Below, in pieces: positions 29,719 through 41,163 of a DNA stretch of 64,000 bases (position 1 is its first letter; each line of letters starts with the position of its first letter). The stretch covers positions 8,813 through 72,812 of the forward strand of contig JBJMKQ010000069.1 in assembly GCA_045805725.1 (NCBI GenBank), in the 5' to 3' direction. Under the pieces are notes generated by a model, which was given only the letters and a program-made list of their open reading frames with translations, was not told the origin of the DNA and made no database searches. This DNA comes from Solirubrobacterales bacterium (GTDB taxonomy: Bacteria > Actinomycetota > Thermoleophilia > Solirubrobacterales > 70-9). Position numbers and translations under genes: made by a program.

Positions 29719-29765
29719 GGTCTCGGTCGCGGACACGGGCGGCAATGATGGCAGAATCCGCGTCG

Positions 29766-31019
29766 ATGCCGGTCCGAGCCACCAAGCGCGGCGACGAGCG
29801 CACGCCGCTCGACGGCGAGCACGACGTTCTGATTTGCGGCGCCAGCTTCGCCGGGCTCGCGGTCGCCCGTGAGCTGGCGGGTTCCGGGGCCGACGTCCTG
29901 ATCCTCGACCGCTACGAGATCGGGGAGCGGCAGACCTCGGCCTGCGGGATCCCGACCGAGTGGCTGCGGCGGCTGGGGCTGATGGACGCCGAGCGCCAGC
30001 GCTTCGACACGCTGGTCATGCACACCCCCCACGGCGACGCCCGCTACCGGCTCCCTTGGACCTTCTCCACCTTCGACTACCGCGAGCTCTGCCGACTTCT
30101 CTGGCGCGACTGCGACGCCCGCTTCGAGACCGCCAAGGTGAACGGGCGCGCGGTCGATGTCGATTTCTTCTCGGATAGCGAGAGGAAATCGACACTGCGC
30201 GAGGGCGCGATCGCGATCGACACGGACCGCGGCATCGTCTCCGCCCCGCTCGTCGTCGACGCCCTCGGCTGGCGGCGGATGCTGGCGCCCGGCGACGGCT
30301 ACCAGCCGCCCGACGCGCCGCTCTCGCGCGGGCTCGAGGTGCATCCCGGCGGCGAGTCCGAGGACCTCGCGATCTGGATCGACCGCAGGTACGTCCCCGC
30401 CGGCTACGGATGGTCCTTCCCGGCCCGCGACGAGCTGCGGATCGGGATCGGGTCCTTCGATCCCCGCTTCCACGTCAAGGAGACGACCGTGGAGCTGACC
30501 CGGGACCTCGGCAAGGAGCCGAACGAGTACCAGGGCAACTGGATCCCCCACAAGCTGCGCCGCGGCACCGAGGGCGGCGTCTTCTTCGTCGGCGACTCGG
30601 CCGGCCACTGCCTGCCGCTCAGCGCCGAGGGGATCAGGACCGCCCTCTACTTCGGGATAGCGCTGGGCCGCGAGCTGCGCGGCGTCCTCGCCGGGACCCG
30701 GAGCCGGGCCGAGGCCGAATCGAGCTACGCCTCCTTCCACGACTCGCACGAGTGGAAGTTCAGGTGGATGCTGCGCGCGCAGAAGCTGGTGCCGCGAGTG
30801 CCGCCGCGGATCCTCGGCCCGCTGATCCGGCTGCTGGGGTCGAAGCGCTTCGTCGACTGGTCCTTCAACCACTACCTGGCGATCGCGCCACCTGAGTTCG
30901 CGGGGTCGGATCTGGCCACCGGATCAGCGGACGACCAGCACCGTCCCGGCCAGCAGCAGGGCGACGCCGAGGAGGCGCTGCGGCGAGAGCGCGACCTGGT
31001 CGAGGCCGAAAAGGCCTAG
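29766..31019 (+). CDS. FAD-dependent oxidoreductase, geranylgeranyl reductase family
   Basis: DVLICGASFAGLAVARELAGSGADVLILDR dinucleotide-binding fold. Start at ATG 29766 (29745 also possible). The last 96 nt overlap the convergent gene. Confidence 0.8.
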   Translation: MPVRATKRGDERTPLDGEHDVLICGASFAGLAVARELAGSGADVLILDRYEIGERQTSACGIPTEWLRRLGLMDAERQRFDTLVMHTPHGDARYRLPWTFSTFDYRELCRLLWRDCDARFETAKVNGRAVDVDFFSDSERKSTLREGAIAIDTDRGIVSAPLVVDALGWRRMLAPGDGYQPPDAPLSRGLEVHPGGESEDLAIWIDRRYVPAGYGWSFPARDELRIGIGSFDPRFHVKETTVELTRDLGKEPNEYQGNWIPHKLRRGTEGGVFFVGDSAGHCLPLSAEGIRTALYFGIALGRELRGVLAGTRSRAEAESSYASFHDSHEWKFRWMLRAQKLVPRVPPRILGPLIRLLGSKRFVDWSFNHYLAIAPPEFAGSDLATGSADDQHRPGQQQGDAEEALRRERDLVEAEKA

Positions 31020-32965: not shown

Positions 32966-33048
32966 GCGCGTGATGGCGCGTGATCTTCGCGCCGCCCTCG
33001 GGTTTCAGCGGCAACCAGTTGTTCAACTTCGAACTAGGAGGAATTGGC

Positions 33049-33801
33049 ATGACCCACGACAGAGGACGGCGAGCTCGCCGCGGCATGACCTGGCTCGCGC
33101 TGGCGCTCGGAGCGCTCGCGCTCCTGGCCATGCCCGGCCTGGCGGCCGCGAAGGACCGCAACCACGACCACATCCCGGACAAGTGGGAGAAGCGGCACAA
33201 GCTCTCCCTGAAGGTCAACCAGGCGCGCCGCGACCAGGACCGGGACCAGCTGCGCAACCGGGCCGAGTTCCTCGCCGGCGACAACCCGCGCGACGAGGAC
33301 TCGAACGACGACGGGGTGACGGACGGCGAGGAGAACGCCGGCACGGTCGCCTCCTTCGACACCGAAAGCGGCAAGCTCACGATCAACCTCTTCGGCGGTG
33401 AAACGATTTCCGGCCTCCTCACCGACGGCACCGAGATCGAGTGCGAGGACCACTCGACCGCTTCGATCAGCAGCGAGGGCCAGGGGTCCGGCGAGGTCGA
33501 GCCGGGCGACGACAACGGCGGCGAAAACGAGGTCGGTGACGACAACGGCGGCCAGGGCGAGGAAGAGCCCGGCGATGACCAGGGCGAGGAAGAGGTCGGT
33601 GACGACAACGGCGTCGACAACTCCGGTCCGGGCAGTCAAAACTCCGGTCCCGGCAACGCTGGTGACGACGAGCAGGAGAACGAGGGCAACTGCACCACCG
33701 GCGATCTCGTCCCCGGCGCCGTCGTGCAGGAGGCAGAGCTGAAGGTGGCCAACGGCCAGGCTACCTTCGAGGAGGTCGAGCTGTCGGGCAAAGACGCCTA
33801 G
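33049..33801 (+). CDS. secreted, highly acidic protein with thrombospondin-type-3-like Asp-rich repeat
   Basis: Trimmed to ATG 33049, preceded by AGGAGG. Signal peptide RRARRGMTWLALALGALALLAMPGLAAA. Asp-rich stretch DQDRDQLRNRAEFLAGDNPRDEDSNDDGVTDGEEN, then repeated GDDNGG/EVGDDNG acidic units. Confidence 0.65.
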   Translation: MTHDRGRRARRGMTWLALALGALALLAMPGLAAAKDRNHDHIPDKWEKRHKLSLKVNQARRDQDRDQLRNRAEFLAGDNPRDEDSNDDGVTDGEENAGTVASFDTESGKLTINLFGGETISGLLTDGTEIECEDHSTASISSEGQGSGEVEPGDDNGGENEVGDDNGGQGEEEPGDDQGEEEVGDDNGVDNSGPGSQNSGPGNAGDDEQENEGNCTTGDLVPGAVVQEAELKVANGQATFEEVELSGKDA

Positions 33802-33831: not shown

Positions 33832-36459
33832 TTACTTGGCGTTGAGCCAGTCGGTCCCGACGCCGACGTCGACCTCGAGCGGCGGTTCGAGCGGGTAGGC
33901 GGCGCACATCTCGCGCCGCACCAGCTCGGCCGCCGTCTCCATCTCCCCCGGCGGACCCTCGAAGAGGAGCTCGTCGTGGATCTGCAGGACCAGGCGGGTC
34001 TCCCCCCCAGCCTCCCGCAGCGCCCTCTGACAGCGCACCATCGCCACCTTGATGATGTCGGCGGCGGTGCCCTGAATCACGGTGTTGACAGCGAGGCGCT
34101 CGCCGAGGCGGCGGGTGTTCGGGTTGGCGGAGCGCAGCTCGGGGATCGCCCGGCGACGCCCCATCAGCGTCGTCACGAATCCCTCCTCCTGGGCGCGCTC
34201 GATCACCTGCTCGCGGAAGGCGCGCACCGCGGGGAAGCGCTCCAGGTAGCGGGCGACGAATTCCTCGCCCTCCTTCCGCGGGATGTTGAGCCGGTCGGCG
34301 AGGCCGAACCCGGTCAGCCCGTAGACGATCCCGAAGTTGACCATCTTCGCCTTCGAGCGCTGGCCGACGTCGACCTCGTCGCGCTCGATCTCGAAGACCT
34401 CGGCGGCGGTGGCGGCGTGCACGTCTTCGCCCTTGCGGAAGACCTCTTTCAGCACCTCCTCGTCGGCGACGTGGGCAAGAACGCGCAGCTCCACCTGGCT
34501 GTAGTCGGCGGAGAGCAGCCGCGCCCCCTCCTCGGCCACGAAGCAGGCCCGGACCGGGCGGCCGAGGTCGGTACGGATCGGGATGTTCTGCAGGTTCGGG
34601 TTGGTGCTGGAAAGGCGGCCGGTCGTGGTCGAGGCCTGGTTGAAGGTGGTGTGGACGCGGCCGGTCTCGGGGTCGATCAGCTCCGGCAGCGAATCGAGAT
34701 AGGTGTTCTTCAGCTTCGTCAGCTCCCGCCAGGACTCGATCCTGGGGATGATCTCGTGCTCGTCGCGGATCTGCGCGAGGACGCGGGCGTCGGTCGAGAA
34801 GCCGGTCTTGCCGCGGCGCTTGCGGGTCAGCTCGAGCTTCTCGAAGAGGATGCGGCCGACCTGCTGGGGAGAACCGATCGTGAACTCCTCTTCGGCCAAG
34901 TCGAAGATCTCCTTCTCCAGCGTGGCGATGCGCTCGCCGAAGCCGGCGCCGACCTCGGCCAGCCGCTCCGCGTCCAGCTTCAGTCCCTCGCGCTCCATCG
35001 CCGCCAGCACGCCGACCAGCGGCAGCTCGATCTCGCTCAGCAGCCGCTCCAGCCCCAGCTCCTGGATGCGCGGCACCTGCACCGCCGCCAGGGCGGCAAC
35101 GAGGCGTGCTTCCTCGGCCGGCTCGAGACCGGGCTCGAGCTCTTCGCCCAGCGCCATTTGGCCGCCGTCCTCCTCGGCCTCCGCGGCGGCGGCGCCCTCG
35201 GCGAGGCCGATCCCGGCGTCGGCGGCAAGCTCGACGAGGTCGTAGGTGCGCCGCTGCGGCTCCAACAGGTAGGCGGCGACCATCGTGTCGTGCTCTAGAT
35301 GCGGCTCGACCCCCGCGCGTGCCGCGGCGGCGAGCAACCCGTGGCGGCCGCCGCCGAGAGACTTGGCGTCGTGGGCGGCGAAGGGCTTGCCGTCGAGGGC
35401 GACCGCGAGCTCGTCGTGCGAGTTCGAGCCGGCGAGGATACGCTCCGCTTCGGCCGCCGCCCAGCGGTCGCCGGCGATCGCCAGGGCGACGGGGCCGTTG
35501 CCGATCTCTCCCGGCTTCCCCGCCACCGCCTCGACCTCCAGCTCGGTCTCGACCCTGCGCCCGGGCACGGCCGCGCCCTCGGGCAGCGCTTCTTCCAGCC
35601 GCTCCATCACCGCCCGCAGCTCGAACTCACGCATGAACTCGCGCAGGGCACCGCGATCGGGCTCGCTCGACATCGCTTCCTCCAAGTCGACGCCGGTCTC
35701 GATCTCGTACTGCAGCGTCGCCAGCTGCTTCGAGAGCCGGGCGTCCTCGGCGTGCTCCACCAGGTTCTGCTTGCGTTTGGCGCCGGAGACCTGGTCGACG
35801 TTCTCCAGCACCGCTTCCAGTGAGCCGAACCGCTGCAGCAGCTGAGTCGCGGTTTTCTCGCCGATCCCGGGGACGCCGGGGATGTTGTCGGAGGTGTCGC
35901 CCCGCAGCCCCATCAGGTCACAGATCAGCTCCGGCGGCACCCCGTAGCGCTCTTCCACCGCGGCCCGGTCGTAGATCTTCGTCTCGGTGATCCCGCGCGA
36001 GGTGCTCATCACCCGCACCCCCTCGTCAACCAGCTGGTAGGCGTCGCGGTCGCCGGTCACGACCATCACCTCGATCCCCTCCTCGCGCGCCTGCCTGACC
36101 AGCGAGGCGATCACGTCGTCTGCCTCGAAGCCTTCGACCCTGACGTTGGTGTAGCCGAAGGCCTCGACCAGCGGCATCAGGTGCGGCCACTGCTCGCGCA
36201 GCAGGTCGGGGCGCGGTTTGCGCTGCGCCTTGTAGAGGTCATACGTTTTCTCGCGGCCGCTGTAGCCGGCGTCCCAGGCAACGACCACGCCCTGCGGATG
36301 GTGTTCGTCGATGATTTTCACCAGCATCGAGGCGAGCCCGTAGATCGCGTTCGTCGGCCGCCCGTCGCTGGTCCCAATCGACTCGGGCAGGGCGAAGAAG
36401 GCGCGGTAGGCGAGGCTGTTGCCGTCGATCAGGAAGAGCTGCGGGGCGTCGGCCGTCAT
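33832..36459 (-). CDS. polA: DNA polymerase I
   Basis: 875 aa. 5'-nuclease N-terminus LFLIDGNSLAYRAFFALP and pol A family motifs (DYSQVELRVLAH, QIHDELLFE). Confidence 0.97.
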   Translation of the reverse strand: MTADAPQLFLIDGNSLAYRAFFALPESIGTSDGRPTNAIYGLASMLVKIIDEHHPQGVVVAWDAGYSGREKTYDLYKAQRKPRPDLLREQWPHLMPLVEAFGYTNVRVEGFEADDVIASLVRQAREEGIEVMVVTGDRDAYQLVDEGVRVMSTSRGITETKIYDRAAVEERYGVPPELICDLMGLRGDTSDNIPGVPGIGEKTATQLLQRFGSLEAVLENVDQVSGAKRKQNLVEHAEDARLSKQLATLQYEIETGVDLEEAMSSEPDRGALREFMREFELRAVMERLEEALPEGAAVPGRRVETELEVEAVAGKPGEIGNGPVALAIAGDRWAAAEAERILAGSNSHDELAVALDGKPFAAHDAKSLGGGRHGLLAAAARAGVEPHLEHDTMVAAYLLEPQRRTYDLVELAADAGIGLAEGAAAAEAEEDGGQMALGEELEPGLEPAEEARLVAALAAVQVPRIQELGLERLLSEIELPLVGVLAAMEREGLKLDAERLAEVGAGFGERIATLEKEIFDLAEEEFTIGSPQQVGRILFEKLELTRKRRGKTGFSTDARVLAQIRDEHEIIPRIESWRELTKLKNTYLDSLPELIDPETGRVHTTFNQASTTTGRLSSTNPNLQNIPIRTDLGRPVRACFVAEEGARLLSADYSQVELRVLAHVADEEVLKEVFRKGEDVHAATAAEVFEIERDEVDVGQRSKAKMVNFGIVYGLTGFGLADRLNIPRKEGEEFVARYLERFPAVRAFREQVIERAQEEGFVTTLMGRRRAIPELRSANPNTRRLGERLAVNTVIQGTAADIIKVAMVRCQRALREAGGETRLVLQIHDELLFEGPPGEMETAAELVRREMCAAYPLEPPLEVDVGVGTDWLNAK
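36334..36440. repeat. proximal copy of a 107-nt direct repeat (polA codons ~7-42)
   Basis: Manual alignment to 39006-39112 gives 102/107 identical in the same orientation. Confidence 0.85.
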
Positions 36460-36509
36460 CGAGCGCCCACTCTACGAGGCGACCCCGCGGATCGCCGCAC
36501 CCGCTCGGG

Positions 36510-37835
36510 TCAGACCTCGCCCGACTCCAGCAGACCGACCAGAGCCGCCACGACCGCAGGGTCGAACTGGGTCCCAACGCAGGCACGCAGCTCGGCGATC
36601 GCCGCATCGACGCTCATCGCCTTGCGGTAGGAGCGAGTCGTGGTCATCGCGCTGAAGGCGTCGCAGCAGGTGACGATGCGAGCCTCGACCGGAATCTCCT
36701 CGCCCACCAAGCCATCGGGATAGCCGGATCCGTCGAAGTCCTCGTGCGAGGCGCGGACGATGCGGCCGACCTCGGCAAGGACGCCGCCGATCCGCTTCAG
36801 CATCCGCTCGCCTTCGATCGTGTGCTGGCGCATGACCTGCCACTCCGCCTCGTCGAGCGGGCCCTTCTTGTTGATGATCTCGTTCGGCACCGAGATCTTG
36901 CCGACGTCGTGGAGGAGGGCGGCGAACTCGACGTTGCGACGCTGCTCGAACTTGAGGCCGAGGCGATCGCTGACGGCCAGCGACAGATCGACGACGCCGC
37001 GGCTGTGGCTGCCGGTATAGGCGTCGTCTGCCTCGACTACGTCCCCCAGCAGCAATGCCGTGCCCTGGTATGCCTCGCTGAGGGTCAATGCCTGGTCGAG
37101 CCGGGTCTGCCGCTCGCGCGAGAGCACGGCGAGGACGGCGGCGAGCGGGATCACCAGCAGGCAGGCCTCCGGTCCTAATTGCAGCGCCACCACCGCCGCG
37201 AGCAGGCCAATCGGCGCCAAGGCGGCGTCGAGGCCGTAGACCGGGGCGATCATCCCCAGCACGGCGGTGGGCGGGGTCCGGTCGATCAGCCGTGCCCGCG
37301 CGGCGGTGGCGGCGAAATCAAAACCGAACTGGGAGAGCAGGGCGAGCACATAGATCGGCCAGGCATCCCAGGAGAAGGTCTGGGCGCTGAAAGCCGCGAT
37401 CACGAAAGCCGGACCGACCGCGTGCCAGCAGTCACCGAAGACATGGAAGGCGCGGTGGATGCTGGTGTGGCCGCTGGCGTAGTCGATCAGGCGTCCCAGC
37501 GTCCAGCTGAGGCTGACCACCAACGGCACCAGCGGCGTCGGCAAGAGAAGGAGCATCGGCACCAGGACCAGCTCGGTGGGCACGGTGTAGCCGTCGGCGA
37601 TGTCGAACCTCGCCTGGCAGGCGATCACGTAAGCGGCCACCAGTGAGACCAGGGGGGCGATTTCGAGCGGGCGCGGGGACTCCATGAACACGGCCATCGC
37701 CGAGGCCATCAGCAGGAAGCCCCCGCCGGCCGCCAGCTCGACCGCGCGCTCACGGCCATGCGCCTTGATCAACGCCCGGGTGCGGCCACGCGCGTACAGC
37801 TGCTCGGGATTGGTTGCCGGAGTCGCGGTCTGCAT
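36510..37835 (-). CDS. HD-GYP domain c-di-GMP phosphodiesterase with N-terminal multi-pass membrane domain
   Basis: 441 aa. About 7 N-terminal TM helices, then LLHDVGKISVP, HTIEGERML and SHEDFDGSGYPDGL (HD...GYP signature). Confidence 0.9.
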   Translation of the reverse strand: MQTATPATNPEQLYARGRTRALIKAHGRERAVELAAGGGFLLMASAMAVFMESPRPLEIAPLVSLVAAYVIACQARFDIADGYTVPTELVLVPMLLLLPTPLVPLVVSLSWTLGRLIDYASGHTSIHRAFHVFGDCWHAVGPAFVIAAFSAQTFSWDAWPIYVLALLSQFGFDFAATAARARLIDRTPPTAVLGMIAPVYGLDAALAPIGLLAAVVALQLGPEACLLVIPLAAVLAVLSRERQTRLDQALTLSEAYQGTALLLGDVVEADDAYTGSHSRGVVDLSLAVSDRLGLKFEQRRNVEFAALLHDVGKISVPNEIINKKGPLDEAEWQVMRQHTIEGERMLKRIGGVLAEVGRIVRASHEDFDGSGYPDGLVGEEIPVEARIVTCCDAFSAMTTTRSYRKAMSVDAAIAELRACVGTQFDPAVVAALVGLLESGEV

Positions 37836-38012
37836 GAGAACAGGGGGTTCTCAACCCCACCTCTGACCCCTACATCGGCCAGCCAAGGCCTGGAAATGAG
37901 CGCTTTCCTATTTTCCCGCTCCACAAGTGCGAAAAGTAGCTAGAGAATCCGTCCAAATGGCTTCAGTCAGGGGGTCCGGCCGCCGATGCACCGGCCACAT
38001 AAGCGCAGATTT

Positions 38013-38116
38013 GAGCTGAATAAGGGCAAACCTGTCGCGAGGCAGGGACGCAAAGTCAGAGGTCTCGTCCTTGACGAGACGGCTCGGCCGCCAGCTTGGT
38101 GAAAACCAGGCTTTTT
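38013..38116 (+). promoter_or_regulatory. candidate c-di-GMP-I (GEMM-I) riboswitch with terminator-type expression platform
   Basis: GGGCAAACC-UGUC-GCGA-GGCA-GGGACGCAAAG (38024-38055) has the two conserved GEMM-I blocks flanking a GNRA-capped 6-bp helix. P1 is GAGCUG (38013-18) / CAGCUU (38092-97). The second hairpin is GUCUCGU (38062-68) / ACGAGAC (38074-80). The terminator AGCUUGG-UGAAAA-CCAGGCU plus a U run (38093-38116) overlaps the P1 3' strand. Confidence 0.7.
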
Positions 38117-38142
38117 CGCCTGCGACCAGGAGGTTTACCCAA

Positions 38143-38748
38143 GTGAAGTCGATCCGAAAGGTCCTTGCCATCGTCGTCGCCGCCGTCGCGGTCAGCGGGC
38201 TCTCCGCGGCTGCAGCTGAGGGCGCCAGCTGCCCCTATGACGGGGCAGAACAGGTCTTCAAGCCATGGGGCGATGCGAAGAGCTACGTCCTGGCTCCCGA
38301 TGGAGGGTTCGAGTCGGGCGGCGTCGGCTGGGCACTCGGCAACGGCGCCGAGACGGTGCCGGGCAACGAGTCCTTCTACCTCGGCGACCCCTCCGACGAA
38401 CGGTCGCTCTCGCTGCCGGCCGGCAGCACCGCCGTCAGCCCGCCGGTCTGCATGTCGCTGGACACGCCCACCTTCCGCCTCCTCGCTCGAAACACGGGCG
38501 ATCCCAACTCGACCCTGCGGGTCGAAGCGATCTACCCGCTGCTGGGCCTGCTCCGCACCAAGACCCTGAGCACGGTCAAGGCGGGCCCGAGCTGGGCGCC
38601 GACCCAGCAGATGTCGACCGTCCTCACCCTCTCGGCGATCGTCGGCACCCTGATCCCCAGCGCGGTCCAGATCCGGATCACGCCGGTGGGCAGCGGTGGC
38701 GGTTGGCAGGTCGACGACCTCTACATCGACCCCTTCGCCCGCCGCTAG
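38143..38748 (+). CDS. secreted protein of unknown function (possible jelly-roll / carbohydrate-binding-like fold)
   Basis: Trimmed to GTG 38143, 9 nt after AGGAGG. Signal peptide KSIRKVLAIVVAAVAVSGLSAAAAEG. The GGFESGGVGWALGNGAE motif is reminiscent of CBM-like beta-sandwich domains (weak inference). Confidence 0.65.
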   Translation: MKSIRKVLAIVVAAVAVSGLSAAAAEGASCPYDGAEQVFKPWGDAKSYVLAPDGGFESGGVGWALGNGAETVPGNESFYLGDPSDERSLSLPAGSTAVSPPVCMSLDTPTFRLLARNTGDPNSTLRVEAIYPLLGLLRTKTLSTVKAGPSWAPTQQMSTVLTLSAIVGTLIPSAVQIRITPVGSGGGWQVDDLYIDPFARR

Positions 38749-39113
38749 CGCTTCACGGACGATCCTCCTGCGTCCAGAGCCCGGGCGACGTCGGCAACGA
38801 CGCGCCCGGGCTCTTCTTCCAGCTGCCGTTCGCTGAAGCGCAGCACCGTGAATCCCCGCTGGCGCAGGTCGAGGTCGCGGGCGCGGTCCTCCTCGAAGGA
38901 GACGGAACCGCGGTGGTGGAGAAGGGAGTCGGTTTGGACGACGAGGCGCTGCTCGCGCCAGAGGAAGTCGACCTACCAGCGGCCGAGCTTGACGTTCGTC
39001 TCGGGGAGCCCGTAGATCGCATTCGTCGGTCGCCGGTCGCCGGTCCCGATCGACTCGGGCAGGGCGAAGAAGGCGCGGTAGGCGAGGCTGTTGCCGTCGA
39101 TCAGGAAGAGCTA
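38745..39113 (-). pseudogene. chimeric pseudogene: duplicated polA 5' fragment (39006-39112) fused in frame to a DUF559 endonuclease-like C-terminal remnant (38745-39005), with two in-frame TAG stops
   Basis: Own translation: *LFLIDGNSLAYRAFFALPESIGTGDRRPTNAIYGLPETNVKLGRW*VDFLWREQRLVVQTDSLLHHRGSVSFEEDRARDLDLRQRGFTVLRFSERQLEEEPGRVVADVARALDAGGSSVKR*. TAG codons lie at 39111-39113 (CAG in polA) and 38973-38975. VDFLW...RD..L...G..VLRF is the DUF559 pattern. Confidence 0.7.
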
Positions 39114-39160
39114 GGGTGCGGAAGCGGCGTCAGGCACGGGCGCGACTCTATCCGCGGCCC

Positions 39161-39218
39161 GGGCTTCGGGCGTGTCGCTTTGGTTACCCATTAGGTAACC
39201 AAAGCGACAGGGCTTCGG
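39161..39218. repeat. small palindromic element flanked by 9-bp direct repeats (MITE-like footprint or terminator)
   Basis: GGGCTTCGG (39161-69) - gcgt - GTCGCTTTGGTTACC (39174-88) - CATTA - GGTAACCAAAGCGAC (39194-39208) - a - GGGCTTCGG (39210-18). Perfect 15-bp stem, noticeably AT-richer than its surroundings. Confidence 0.5.
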
Positions 39219-39258
39219 ACTCGCCCCCTTACGTGCTGCTTTTCTCGGTGCGGTTTCG

Positions 39259-39516
39259 CTACGCCTTCGGCGGCAGCGACATTGCGTAGTCGGCGCCCGC
39301 GTCGACCCACTTCGCAAGGTCCTCGTCGCTCGCAGTGCCTTCGGGATCGACGTAGACCATGTTCTTCATCGGCTTCCCCGTGAAGTCCATCGGCTGCGTG
39401 TGCGCCTCCCGCAGCGCCCGCTCCGCGTCGACGGGATCGAGCCGAACCATCAGGTCATCGCCGATCGCTCCCACGGCCATGTTGCCGGCGAGCATGAAGG
39501 CGATGCCGCCGAACAT
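39259..39516 (-). CDS. TfoX N-terminal-domain protein, apparently 5'-truncated (possible pseudogene)
   Basis: 85-aa ORF MFGGIAFMLAGNMAVGAIGDDLMVRL...PMDFTGKPMKNMVYV matches the TfoX_N core. The same frame stays open 33 codons upstream (to TGA 39616-18) and encodes family-like ...RAAVRSELSERR, but contains no ATG/GTG/TTG. Confidence 0.6.
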   Translation of the reverse strand: MFGGIAFMLAGNMAVGAIGDDLMVRLDPVDAERALREAHTQPMDFTGKPMKNMVYVDPEGTASDEDLAKWVDAGADYAMSLPPKA

Positions 39517-39699: not shown

Positions 39700-41163
39700 A
39701 TGGCTGTCAGCGCCCAGTACAGCGTCACGATCCGCGTCGAGCTCGATGCGCGGCAGGAGCCCCTCGGGCGGCTCACGGCTGCGATCGCCGAGGCGGGCGG
39801 GCAACTGCAGGGGGTCGACCTGGTGCCGGGCGCCGGGCCCGAGGGAAAGCGGGTGCGCGAGTTCACGATCGACGCCGCCGACCGCGAGCATTGGGAGAAG
39901 ATCCTGCGGGCGATCGGCTCGACCCGGGGCGCCCGTGTCCTCGACTACGTCGACCGCACGATGCAGATGCACCGCGGCGGCAAGATCGAGCAGCGCAACA
40001 AGTACCCGCTGAAGACCCGCGACGACCTCTCGATGGCCTACACCCCCGGCGTCGCCCGTGTCTGCATGGACATCCACGCCGACCGCAGCAAGGCCTTCGA
40101 GTACACGATCAAGAAGAACACGGTCGCGGTGGTCTCCGACGGCAGCGCTGTCCTCGGCCTCGGCAACATCGGCCCCGAGGCGGCGATGCCGGTGATGGAG
40201 GGCAAGTGCATGCTGTTCAAGGAGTTCGCCTCCGTCGATGCTTTCCCGATCTGCCTCGACACCCAGGACGCCGACGAGATCGTCCGCGCGGTCGAGTTGA
40301 TGGCCCCCACCTTCGGCGGCGTCAACCTTGAGGACATCTCGGCCCCGCGCTGCTTTGAGATCGAGGAACGGCTCAAGGAGTCGCTGGATATCCCCGTCTT
40401 CCACGACGACCAGCACGGCACCGCGATCGTGACGATGGCGGCCCTCTTCAACGCGCTGAAGATCACCGGGAAGCCGATCGAGCAGCTGCGGGTGCTGGTG
40501 GTGGGCCTCGGCGCCGCCGGGGTGGCGGTGACGAAGATGATGCAGGAAGCCGGCGTCAGCCACATCGTCGGCTGCGACCGCCAGGGCGCGCTTTCGACCG
40601 ATCGCGAGGACTACGCGTCGGGCGAGATGAACGCGACCAAGCGCTGGTTCGCCGAGACCTTCAACCCGGACAAGGTCAGCGGCAGCCCCGATGACGCGGT
40701 CGAGGGGATGGACCTCTTCGTCGGCCTCTCCGGGCCGGGAATCATCCAGGCCGATTCGCTGGCGAAGATGAACGACGACGCGATCGTCTTCGCGATGGCC
40801 AACCCGAACCCCGAGGTGATGCCCGAGGATGCGGCGCCCCACGCGCGGATCATGGCCACCGGCCGCTCCGACTACCCGAACCAGATCAACAACGTGCTCG
40901 CCTTCCCTGGCGTCTTCCGCGGCGCCCTCGACGCCGGCGCCCCCAGCATCACCGAGGAGATGAAGCTCGCCGCCGCCAAGGGGATCGCGATGGCGGTGTC
41001 CGAGGCCGACCTCGCCGAGGACTACATCATCCCCAGCGTCTTCAACCGCGAGGTCGCCCCGAAGGTGGCCGAAGCGGTGGTCGAGGAGGCCAAGCGCGAC
41101 GGCATCGCCCGGCTCAACGAGGAGACCGGGACCTTCGCCGCGGTGGAGAGCCCGGGGTACTAG
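39700..41163 (+). CDS. NAD(P)-dependent malic enzyme with N-terminal ACT-like domain
   Basis: 487 aa. LSMAYTPGVARVC, FHDDQHGTAIV and GLGAAGVA motifs; about 75 aa of ACT-like N-terminal extension. Confidence 0.9.
   Translation: MAVSAQYSVTIRVELDARQEPLGRLTAAIAEAGGQLQGVDLVPGAGPEGKRVREFTIDAADREHWEKILRAIGSTRGARVLDYVDRTMQMHRGGKIEQRNKYPLKTRDDLSMAYTPGVARVCMDIHADRSKAFEYTIKKNTVAVVSDGSAVLGLGNIGPEAAMPVMEGKCMLFKEFASVDAFPICLDTQDADEIVRAVELMAPTFGGVNLEDISAPRCFEIEERLKESLDIPVFHDDQHGTAIVTMAALFNALKITGKPIEQLRVLVVGLGAAGVAVTKMMQEAGVSHIVGCDRQGALSTDREDYASGEMNATKRWFAETFNPDKVSGSPDDAVEGMDLFVGLSGPGIIQADSLAKMNDDAIVFAMANPNPEVMPEDAAPHARIMATGRSDYPNQINNVLAFPGVFRGALDAGAPSITEEMKLAAAKGIAMAVSEADLAEDYIIPSVFNREVAPKVAEAVVEEAKRDGIARLNEETGTFAAVESPGY

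Follow-up and report, generated by a model that had tools for sequence, protein, structure and literature searches.

A displaced polA start beside a c-di-GMP cassette in a Solirubrobacterales genome: a probable recombinant of two haplotypes of one variable locus

Introduction

Homology-facilitated illegitimate recombination, in which one end of a DNA segment is anchored in homology and the other is joined without it, has been described in bacteria (de Vries & Wackernagel 2002; Prudhomme et al. 2002; Meier & Wackernagel 2003, as cited in PMC5361080). In Escherichia coli, most of the selected events of this kind arose when a circularised molecule integrated by a single crossover, with 109-950 bp of the anchor being duplicated in the process (PMC3240628), and the displacement of modules that leaves orphan fragments in type VI secretion system (T6SS) loci has been explained by homology-facilitated illegitimate recombination or by the single-crossover route (PMC5361080). 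This work deals with a natural locus of a Solirubrobacterales bacterium, contained in a stretch of 64,000 nucleotides (assembly GCA_045805725.1, contig JBJMKQ010000069.1, positions 8,813 to 72,812) that is referred to here as the window. In this window, a direct repeat of the 5' end of the DNA polymerase gene polA brackets a cyclic di-GMP (c-di-GMP) cassette, composed of an HD-GYP phosphodiesterase gene, a c-di-GMP riboswitch and a gene for a secreted protein. The window is probably a recombinant of a cassette-less and a cassette-bearing haplotype at one variable locus.

Several described systems resemble this arrangement. One end would be anchored in homology, namely polA, and the other is joined without it, as in homology-facilitated illegitimate recombination, and the duplication of the anchor, of roughly 100-150 bp, is comparable to that of the E. 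coli products. The event, a new instance of a known process, differs from the experimental ones in that it is deduced from a natural genome, that the partner DNA is not foreign but represents another haplotype of this locus, and that an additional junction is present. In the Rhs, contact-dependent growth inhibition (CDI) as well as T6SS effector-immunity arrays (PMC5361080), the incoming module also brings a conserved part while the resident copy is pushed aside dead, with clean replacements in most relatives and the scar kept in rare ones. However, the part concerned here belongs to a housekeeping polymerase gene, at its 5' end, and is not a 3' toxin tip, and a single relic is found, with no array and no retained-immunity logic. 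Integrative islands and prophages located at gene ends (tRNA or tmRNA genes and att sites in protein genes) share with this locus a gene-end repeat that brackets DNA and a working gene end on the inside, but here there is no integrase, no repeat in other carriers of the cassette, an empty-site point that lies off the repeat and one edge that is a gene fusion. Regarding the cargo, control of a secreted or surface protein by a riboswitch is typical of the GEMM-I class. The likeness to known c-di-GMP-I regulons and HD-GYP enzymes consists of an aptamer above the Rfam gathering threshold and of intact HD and GYP motifs; in contrast to the known regulons, a fixed divergent pair, formed by a membrane HD-GYP protein and a secreted protein resembling carbohydrate-binding modules (CBM), is found here across many Solirubrobacterales.

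Results

A direct repeat with two copies, at 36331-36448 and 39003-39120, was detected by the repeat finder (92% identity over 118 nt). The segments 36334-36440 and 39006-39112 were identical at 102 of 107 positions in a MAFFT alignment, with five mismatches, and the longest exact block shared by both copies was 64 nt (36377-36440, equal to 39049-39112). When each copy was compared by BLAST with the whole 64-kb window, two places only were recovered, with an E value of 1e-45. The proximal copy (36334..36440, minus strand) corresponds to codons 7-42 of the working polA gene (33832..36459, minus strand), which encodes a functional protein of 875 aa with the Pfam domains 5_3_exonuc_N, 5_3_exonuc and DNA_pol_A. 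The distal copy (39006..39112, minus strand) is part of a longer relic (39006..39156, minus strand). A 107-nt repeat of these polA codons had already been described in the initial annotation of the window, made from the sequence alone, and the three methods agreed with it; the content assigned there to the interval between the copies, an HD-GYP gene, a riboswitch followed by a secreted-protein gene, and a remnant of a DUF559 gene, was also recovered with Pfam and Rfam. The coordinates of the repeat were right, but the rearranged region reaches further, to a 5' remnant of the DUF559 gene with a hairpin at approximately 39159-39243.

The locus was compared with 160 related loci, 80 from genomes and 80 from metagenomes (designated by L numbers). 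The genome loci were obtained from a scan at one genome per species, belong to Solirubrobacterales and have polA proteins 81-93% identical in amino acids to that of the window. Exact-protein look-ups with the TfoX, HD-GYP and polA proteins of the window gave no match.

The two copies of the repeat were found to have different start regions. That of the working polA belongs to an ATG class (CCTCGTAGAGTGG..GATG..GACGC), with a TAGAGT -10-like box located 9 nt upstream of the ATG, and this start class (TAGAGTGG..ATG) is present in 14/14 cassette-bearing loci and also in many distant relatives. The start region of the distal copy (TAGAGTCGC..GTGCC; TAGAGTCGCgCCCGTGCCtGACGCC..) was seen only in the cassette-less loci L001, L004, L005, L007, L011 and L056. 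It had been proposed that the ATG corresponds to CTG in the distal copy, which was wrong: this copy is of the other allele class and its start is a GTG at 39137-39135. The relic comprises the last three or so DUF559 codons, the stop codon with the TAGAGT box (39150-39145), the GTG start and the polA codons up to Leu42, and it is 89-92% identical over about 150 nt to the corresponding region of L056, L007, L011, L001 and L005, all of them cassette-less. A Gln codon of the relic has been replaced by TAG at 39113-39111, immediately before the repeat core. The five differences between the copies consist of three synonymous polymorphisms that also occur in relatives, Ser31Gly, which is rare, and Gly33Arg, a change unique to the relic at an invariant site (Gly in 76/76 relatives). 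The distal copy is a displaced polA start, no longer functional, and a young pseudogene. The nonsense codon and the substitution of the invariant glycine bear out the earlier proposal that the original 5' end of polA was displaced and that the working start was supplied from the side of the interval.

The identity between copies was compared with that between species over codons 8-42 (105 nt). The copies share 100/105 positions with each other; the working copy shares 104/105 with L056 and 103 with L005, L036 and L081, and the relic shares 101/105 with L056 and L011. As the copies are no more alike than each is to the orthologues of other species, their 95% identity reflects the cross-species conservation of the exonuclease motif, and no sign of a recent duplication or of gene conversion is apparent in it. 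The relic has just 1-2 unique changes in these 105 nt, and the divergence of polA from its nearest relatives at four-fold sites is 0.22-0.28. A relic as old as those splits would hold many more neutral changes, so that the event would postdate the split of the window from every sampled relative, and its young age explains why it is unique among them.

These data bear on the possibility of an in-situ tandem duplication, spanning from the 3' part of DUF559 to the 5' end of polA in a cassette-bearing genome and followed by deletion and gene conversion. Such a duplication would yield exactly the junction found between polA codon 42 and DUF559, and the 64-nt exact block could support conversion. 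However, the promoter, start and first codons of the distal copy, as well as the DUF559 codons that precede them, are of a class found only in cassette-less relatives, and the combination of the cassette with a polA of the TAGAGTCGC..GTG type is absent among the 14 cassette-bearing loci. Besides, the identity between copies is below that between the working copy and its closest orthologue, with no conversion signal. This origin is considered highly improbable, and the local duplication homogenised by gene conversion that had been offered in the initial annotation is not supported, since the copies belong to different classes upstream of codon 7 and each resembles orthologues at least as closely as it does the other copy.

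DUF559 has a Vsr-like endonuclease fold. In the relatives, AbiEi_4 and DUF559 are encoded in one open reading frame (ORF) of about 300 aa, and no intact AbiEi_4/DUF559 ORF is present in the window, where 11 N-terminal and 84 C-terminal codons are left, with a stop in the latter. The 3' remnant (38753..39005, minus strand) contains the last 84 codons approximately (Pfam DUF559 5e-11 with the internal stop read through), with the internal TAG at 38975-38973 and a change from Glu to Gln in the conserved E-x-D motif. The 5' remnant (39157..39243, minus strand), recognised by alignment to the DUF559 starts of relatives and by a covariance-model match of 64 bits, includes at 39243-39160 the upstream region with the GGGGGCGAG motif, a 16-bp hairpin and 11 codons (MGNQSDTPEAR). 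The C-terminal tail of the 3' remnant (..DVARAL..SSVKR, then stop) is of the cassette-bearing type and the codons preceding the relic (..AARG, then stop) are of the type of cassette-less relatives, so the window holds the junction sequences of both haplotypes.

Two junctions delimit the relic. At J2 (39005..39006, minus strand), polA codon 42 (..ATC TAC GGG CTC, encoding ..I-Y-G-L) is fused onto DUF559 codon 225 or thereabouts (CCC GAG ACG AAC, within P-E-T-N-V). The joined coding sequences are unrelated and share little or no homology, as in an illegitimate join. Below 39005 the window is collinear with the order DUF559 3' part, cassette and polA of cassette-bearing loci; L163, L014 and L018 are homologous to the window as far as 39005/39006, and the homology of the three closest secreted-protein relatives stops at 38996-39005, with DUF559 continuing uninterrupted there in L161 and L163. 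The surroundings of J2 in the DUF559 of many relatives read ..R-Y-G-L-P-R-P-E-V-N-V (..TAC GGC CTC CCC (AGG CCG) GAG..), and an imperfect microhomology TACGGSCTC (Tyr-Gly-Leu) of at most 9-11 nt, approximately, is possible; two codons would then be missing too. At J1 (approximately 39157-39159, minus strand), DUF559 codon 11 (..GCC CGG) meets ..GCC GCG G just ahead of the stop, at the last three or so DUF559 codons. The relatives carry GCGCGCG-like strings at both sides of J1, which makes a microhomology deletion inside one gene plausible.

The junctions also serve to weigh an assembly chimera of cassette-less and cassette-bearing strains from one metagenome. The window comes from a metagenome-assembled genome and both haplotypes occur in related populations, the 64-nt exact repeat is longer than some assembler k-mer sizes, and the sequence of J2 has not been seen elsewhere (its 26-mer gave no match in other metagenome contigs). 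Nevertheless, the exact repeat does not end at J2, and the sequence that J2 has in common with either parent amounts to about 11 nt at most, which excludes k-mer collapse; J1 would be a second independent oddity. In addition, a nonsense codon together with a substituted invariant glycine is unexpected in the live gene of a co-occurring strain, and the DUF559 remnant has a nonsense codon as well. A chimera is therefore regarded as very improbable.

The usual order at this locus is malic enzyme gene (on the opposite strand), TfoX gene, AbiEi/DUF559 gene and polA. The TfoX gene is found at the locus in only some relatives, and the DUF559 gene of most of them stops approximately 20-40 nt before polA. 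In a minority of loci the cassette lies between DUF559 and polA. All three parts of the cassette were found at this position in the genome loci L002, L003, L006, L008, L014 and L018, and at least both protein genes were found at the same position in the metagenome loci L081, L084, L087, L090, L092, L093 and others. DUF559 is full length in the cassette-bearing loci L003 and L008. In this comparison of sequences, the cassette corresponds to an insertion/deletion polymorphism of a variable locus, and the DUF559 remnant is ancestral sequence of the locus, not cargo. In cassette-less relatives, polA adjoins DUF559 and not directly the tfoX-like or malic enzyme genes. The distribution of the cassette is patchy on polA trees, so the haplotypes must have been exchanged repeatedly among lineages. 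A second polA 5' end was found in none of the 80 genome loci, the metagenome loci that reach polA or the three closest secreted-protein relatives.

An alternative put forward in the initial annotation was a decayed or non-autonomous integrative island, inserted at the 5' end of polA with a replacement end and attL/attR-like repeats. In its favour, a functional cassette is enclosed by direct repeats of a gene end whose exact core is 64 nt long, the cassette is present or absent among relatives, and the three-part module has different genomic surroundings in lineages that are more distant. However, the 14/14 other cassette-bearing loci have a single polA 5' end and no repeat, and, according to the empty sites, the cassette belongs in the gap that separates DUF559 from polA, upstream of the start of polA and not at codon 42. 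At its left edge the repeat is fused to internal DUF559 sequence, which is resident at the locus, and upstream of the distal repeat there is another DUF559 remnant that also belongs to this locus. As the initial annotation had noticed, no integrase or recombinase is encoded in or beside the 2565-nt interval: the genes described fill the 2.6 kb, and the neighbours are the TfoX_N and malic enzyme genes. The GC content, of 0.65-0.70, is alike in the interval and its flanks, with no compositional contrast, and the closest relatives of the cassette belong to the same Solirubrobacterales lineages as those of polA. An island is accordingly rated as extremely improbable.

Discussion

The structure of the locus is probably best explained by recombination between its two haplotypes. 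We infer the following order of events and enzymology. The first haplotype would be cassette-less, with AbiEi/DUF559 running straight into polA, as in the closest relatives of the window that have the TAGAGTCGC..GTG start. The second would be cassette-bearing, with DUF559, the secreted-protein gene and its riboswitch, the HD-GYP gene, and polA with the TAGAGTGG..ATG start. DNA of one haplotype would have recombined with the chromosome of the other through a homologous crossover inside polA or its 5' end and a second, illegitimate one, the join of polA codon 42 to DUF559 codon 225 or so at J2. Homology-facilitated illegitimate recombination and the single-crossover integration of a circularised fragment would give this outcome equally well. 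As a product, the cassette-less polA start would be displaced upstream of the DUF559 3' part, the cassette and the working polA. A second small event, J1, would have deleted DUF559 from codon 12 to about three codons before the stop, and most of the redundant upstream DUF559 would have been lost in this way. The displaced start would later have gained the nonsense codon and the damaging substitution. Two features are those expected of homology-facilitated illegitimate recombination: J2 is a non-homologous junction (with at most about 10 nt of microhomology), and the two copies of the anchor come from different parental DNAs, the distal one from the cassette-less class and the proximal one from the cassette-bearing class. 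polA is the sole candidate for a homologous anchor.

Some observations weigh against this explanation. A crossover point was not located inside polA, where sliding-window identities and segment trees gave weak shifts only, because the divergence from each of the sampled relatives is about 9% or higher. The body of polA and both flanks are closest to the cassette-bearing L002, L087, L090 and L092, followed by the cassette-less L001 and L004, the relic and the hairpin region are most like the cassette-less L001, L056 and L011, and the comparison of the flanks is ambiguous as to the resident haplotype. The start classes are not perfectly discrete, with L004 combining features of both. The correctness of the assembly is argued from internal features of the sequence. 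Finally, two junctions require two events, or one unusual patch capture.

This last possibility would consist of the one-step capture of a 151-bp fragment (the end of DUF559 and the start of polA) from a cassette-less relative into a broken resident DUF559, replacing codons 12-224. J1 and J2 would then be the two ends of a single event, in agreement with the clustering of the polA body and flanks of the window with cassette-bearing lineages, with the youth of the relic and with the short GC-rich microhomologies at both ends. On the other side, the hairpin with the 5' part of DUF559 and the relic are both most like L001, as expected for one haplotype with an internal deletion, and the capture of exogenous fragments of such length is poorly documented in bacteria. 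Patch capture, by end joining or by short-patch illegitimate recombination, is a variant of the two-haplotype recombination and not its opposite, and it is considered unlikely.

Concerning the cargo, the HD-GYP gene (36510..37835, minus strand; Pfam HD_5 1e-36) encodes a c-di-GMP phosphodiesterase of 441 aa, whose N-terminal domain, about 250 aa long, is hydrophobic and whose HD (LLHDVGK) and GYP (HEDFDGSGYPDG) motifs are intact. A Ser replaces the first His of the HHE motif, and the match to the c-di-GMP phosphodiesterase family of NCBIfam was under the cut-off of that family. The c-di-GMP-I (GEMM-I) riboswitch aptamer (38015..38095, plus strand; Rfam RF01051) reached 56 bits, above the gathering score of 35, with the model fully matched from 1 to 87. 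The riboswitch lies in the leader of the secreted-protein gene and is followed by a hairpin with a U-run (approximately 38092-38117) and by an AGGAGG Shine-Dalgarno sequence. In the minimum-energy fold of the leader, aptamer nucleotides are paired with the Shine-Dalgarno segment, a modelled pairing that hints at ligand-dependent control in either direction.

The secreted protein (38143..38748, plus strand), of 201 aa, combines a signal peptide with a beta-sandwich body similar to carbohydrate-binding modules. It has 1108 homologues, none of them named, and no Pfam or NCBIfam match was obtained. The AlphaFold2 model, of medium confidence (pLDDT 68), shows a beta-sandwich, and the top Foldseek matches of this model were CBM22, CBM4, CBM16, CBM61 and MAM domains, with E values of about 1e-5. 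A 12-bp GC-rich hairpin (38776-38787 / 38803-38814) was observed 28 nt past the stop of this gene, inside the convergent DUF559 remnant at the 3' end of its coding sequence, and with TCTTCTTCC after it this hairpin is a possible terminator of the secreted-protein gene. A scan with promoter and terminator consensus sequences yielded nothing useful in the high-GC DNA of the window.

The HD-GYP gene, the riboswitch and the secreted-protein gene behave as one unit. All three parts are present in 6/6 cassette-bearing genome loci, and the unit is present or absent among equally close relatives, in agreement with the earlier proposal that the cassette was acquired as a whole. The riboswitch was also found in five more distant modules, and it is recognisable in modules at 66-75% identity. 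In distant lineages the divergent pair of secreted-protein and HD-GYP genes is kept, with an HD-GYP protein about 50% identical and polA not adjacent. The modules with this approximately 50% identical HD-GYP protein keep the gene pair and have no class-I riboswitch reaching the gathering score. In one more distant module (L101:5087-5167) the best riboswitch score corresponded to the c-di-GMP-I-GGC variant (RF03167) and not to standard class I. Some metagenome contigs (L095, L096 and L085) contain a second diverged tandem copy of one or both cassette genes. Most likely, the membrane HD-GYP protein degrades c-di-GMP and the divergent riboswitch ties the production of the secreted carbohydrate-binding-like protein to the c-di-GMP level.

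The hairpin of the DUF559 5' remnant (minus strand, window 39173-39209) has 16 bp, with arms at 39173-39188 and 39194-39209 and the ATG of DUF559 (39191-39189) in the loop, so that its 3' arm encodes residues 2-6 of AbiEi/DUF559. Compensatory changes were found in 13 of the 16 pairs among 43 loci, and the covariation score was 0.54, compared with 0.14 in shuffles and 0.07-0.11 with the partners slid. A conserved GGGGGAGA motif is located about 30 nt upstream. No Rfam family corresponded to the hairpin; a match to mir-9 in a relaxed Rfam scan appeared on both strands and was discarded as spurious. This hairpin could be an RNA stem, or it could be a palindromic operator in co-evolution with the winged helix-turn-helix DNA-binding domain of AbiEi type that is encoded directly behind it.

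A covariance model located the hairpin at DUF559 starts across the clade and also revealed hairpin-only copies elsewhere, which form a palindrome family (TGTCGAnTT..CGCTATCCG..AAnTCGACA) found at window 30158-30194, L001:16167-16205, L011:16115-16158, L018:9676-9738, L073:9938-9979 and L032:2233-2274. The copy at 30158-30194 is inside a 424-aa ORF (window 29745-31019), an orthologously conserved coding region, where it occupies the orthologous position in several relatives and shows compensatory changes. L073 has a second copy after DUF559, directly upstream of polA, and the copies flank the DUF559 gene. In one further reading, the AbiEi/DUF559 gene upstream of polA, with its strongly covarying hairpin, would form an active nuclease or recombination module, whose breaks drive the turnover of the cassette and whose footprint is the polA relic. 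This reading is rated as very unlikely.

Apart from the rearrangement itself, the interval between the malic enzyme gene and polA is a hotspot of structural variation, with TfoX present or absent and DUF559 intact, truncated or internally deleted in various ways (L002, L006, L056, L087 and L162). The malic enzyme gene (39700..41163, plus strand; Pfam) is the conserved left border, with synteny in most of the 80 loci, and the TfoX_N-domain gene (39259..39516, minus strand; Pfam TfoX_N 2e-12) lies outside the rearrangement. At some loci (L018, L012, L010, L021, L042, L092 and L095) an extra insert of about 1.5 kb precedes polA, with 1.4-1.8 kb between DUF559 or HD-GYP and polA. Nearly all relatives conserve the TA(G/A)AGT box at a distance of 7-9 nt from the start codon of polA, on its upstream side (window 36460-36475 and 39138-39150), which suggests that the polA mRNA has no leader or a very short one, and in cassette-less loci the TAG stop codon of DUF559 is part of this box. 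Just downstream of polA, the ORF 32980-33801, with no Pfam match, contains imperfect repeats with a spacing of about 30 nt (GACGACAACGGCG..) that were detected by the repeat finder at window 33477-33613.

Conclusions

Finding cargo between direct repeats of a gene end is not in itself enough to infer att sites. The comparison also defines a conserved three-part c-di-GMP module, formed by a membrane HD-GYP protein, a class-I riboswitch and a CBM-like secreted protein. Recombination between the repeats would bring the TAG of the relic into polA, so that loss of the cassette by that route would damage this gene. The locus would represent a natural case in which a cassette moves between related uncultured soil actinobacteria without mobile-element machinery, one ordinary crossover in an essential gene and one illegitimate join, legible to this day, being sufficient.

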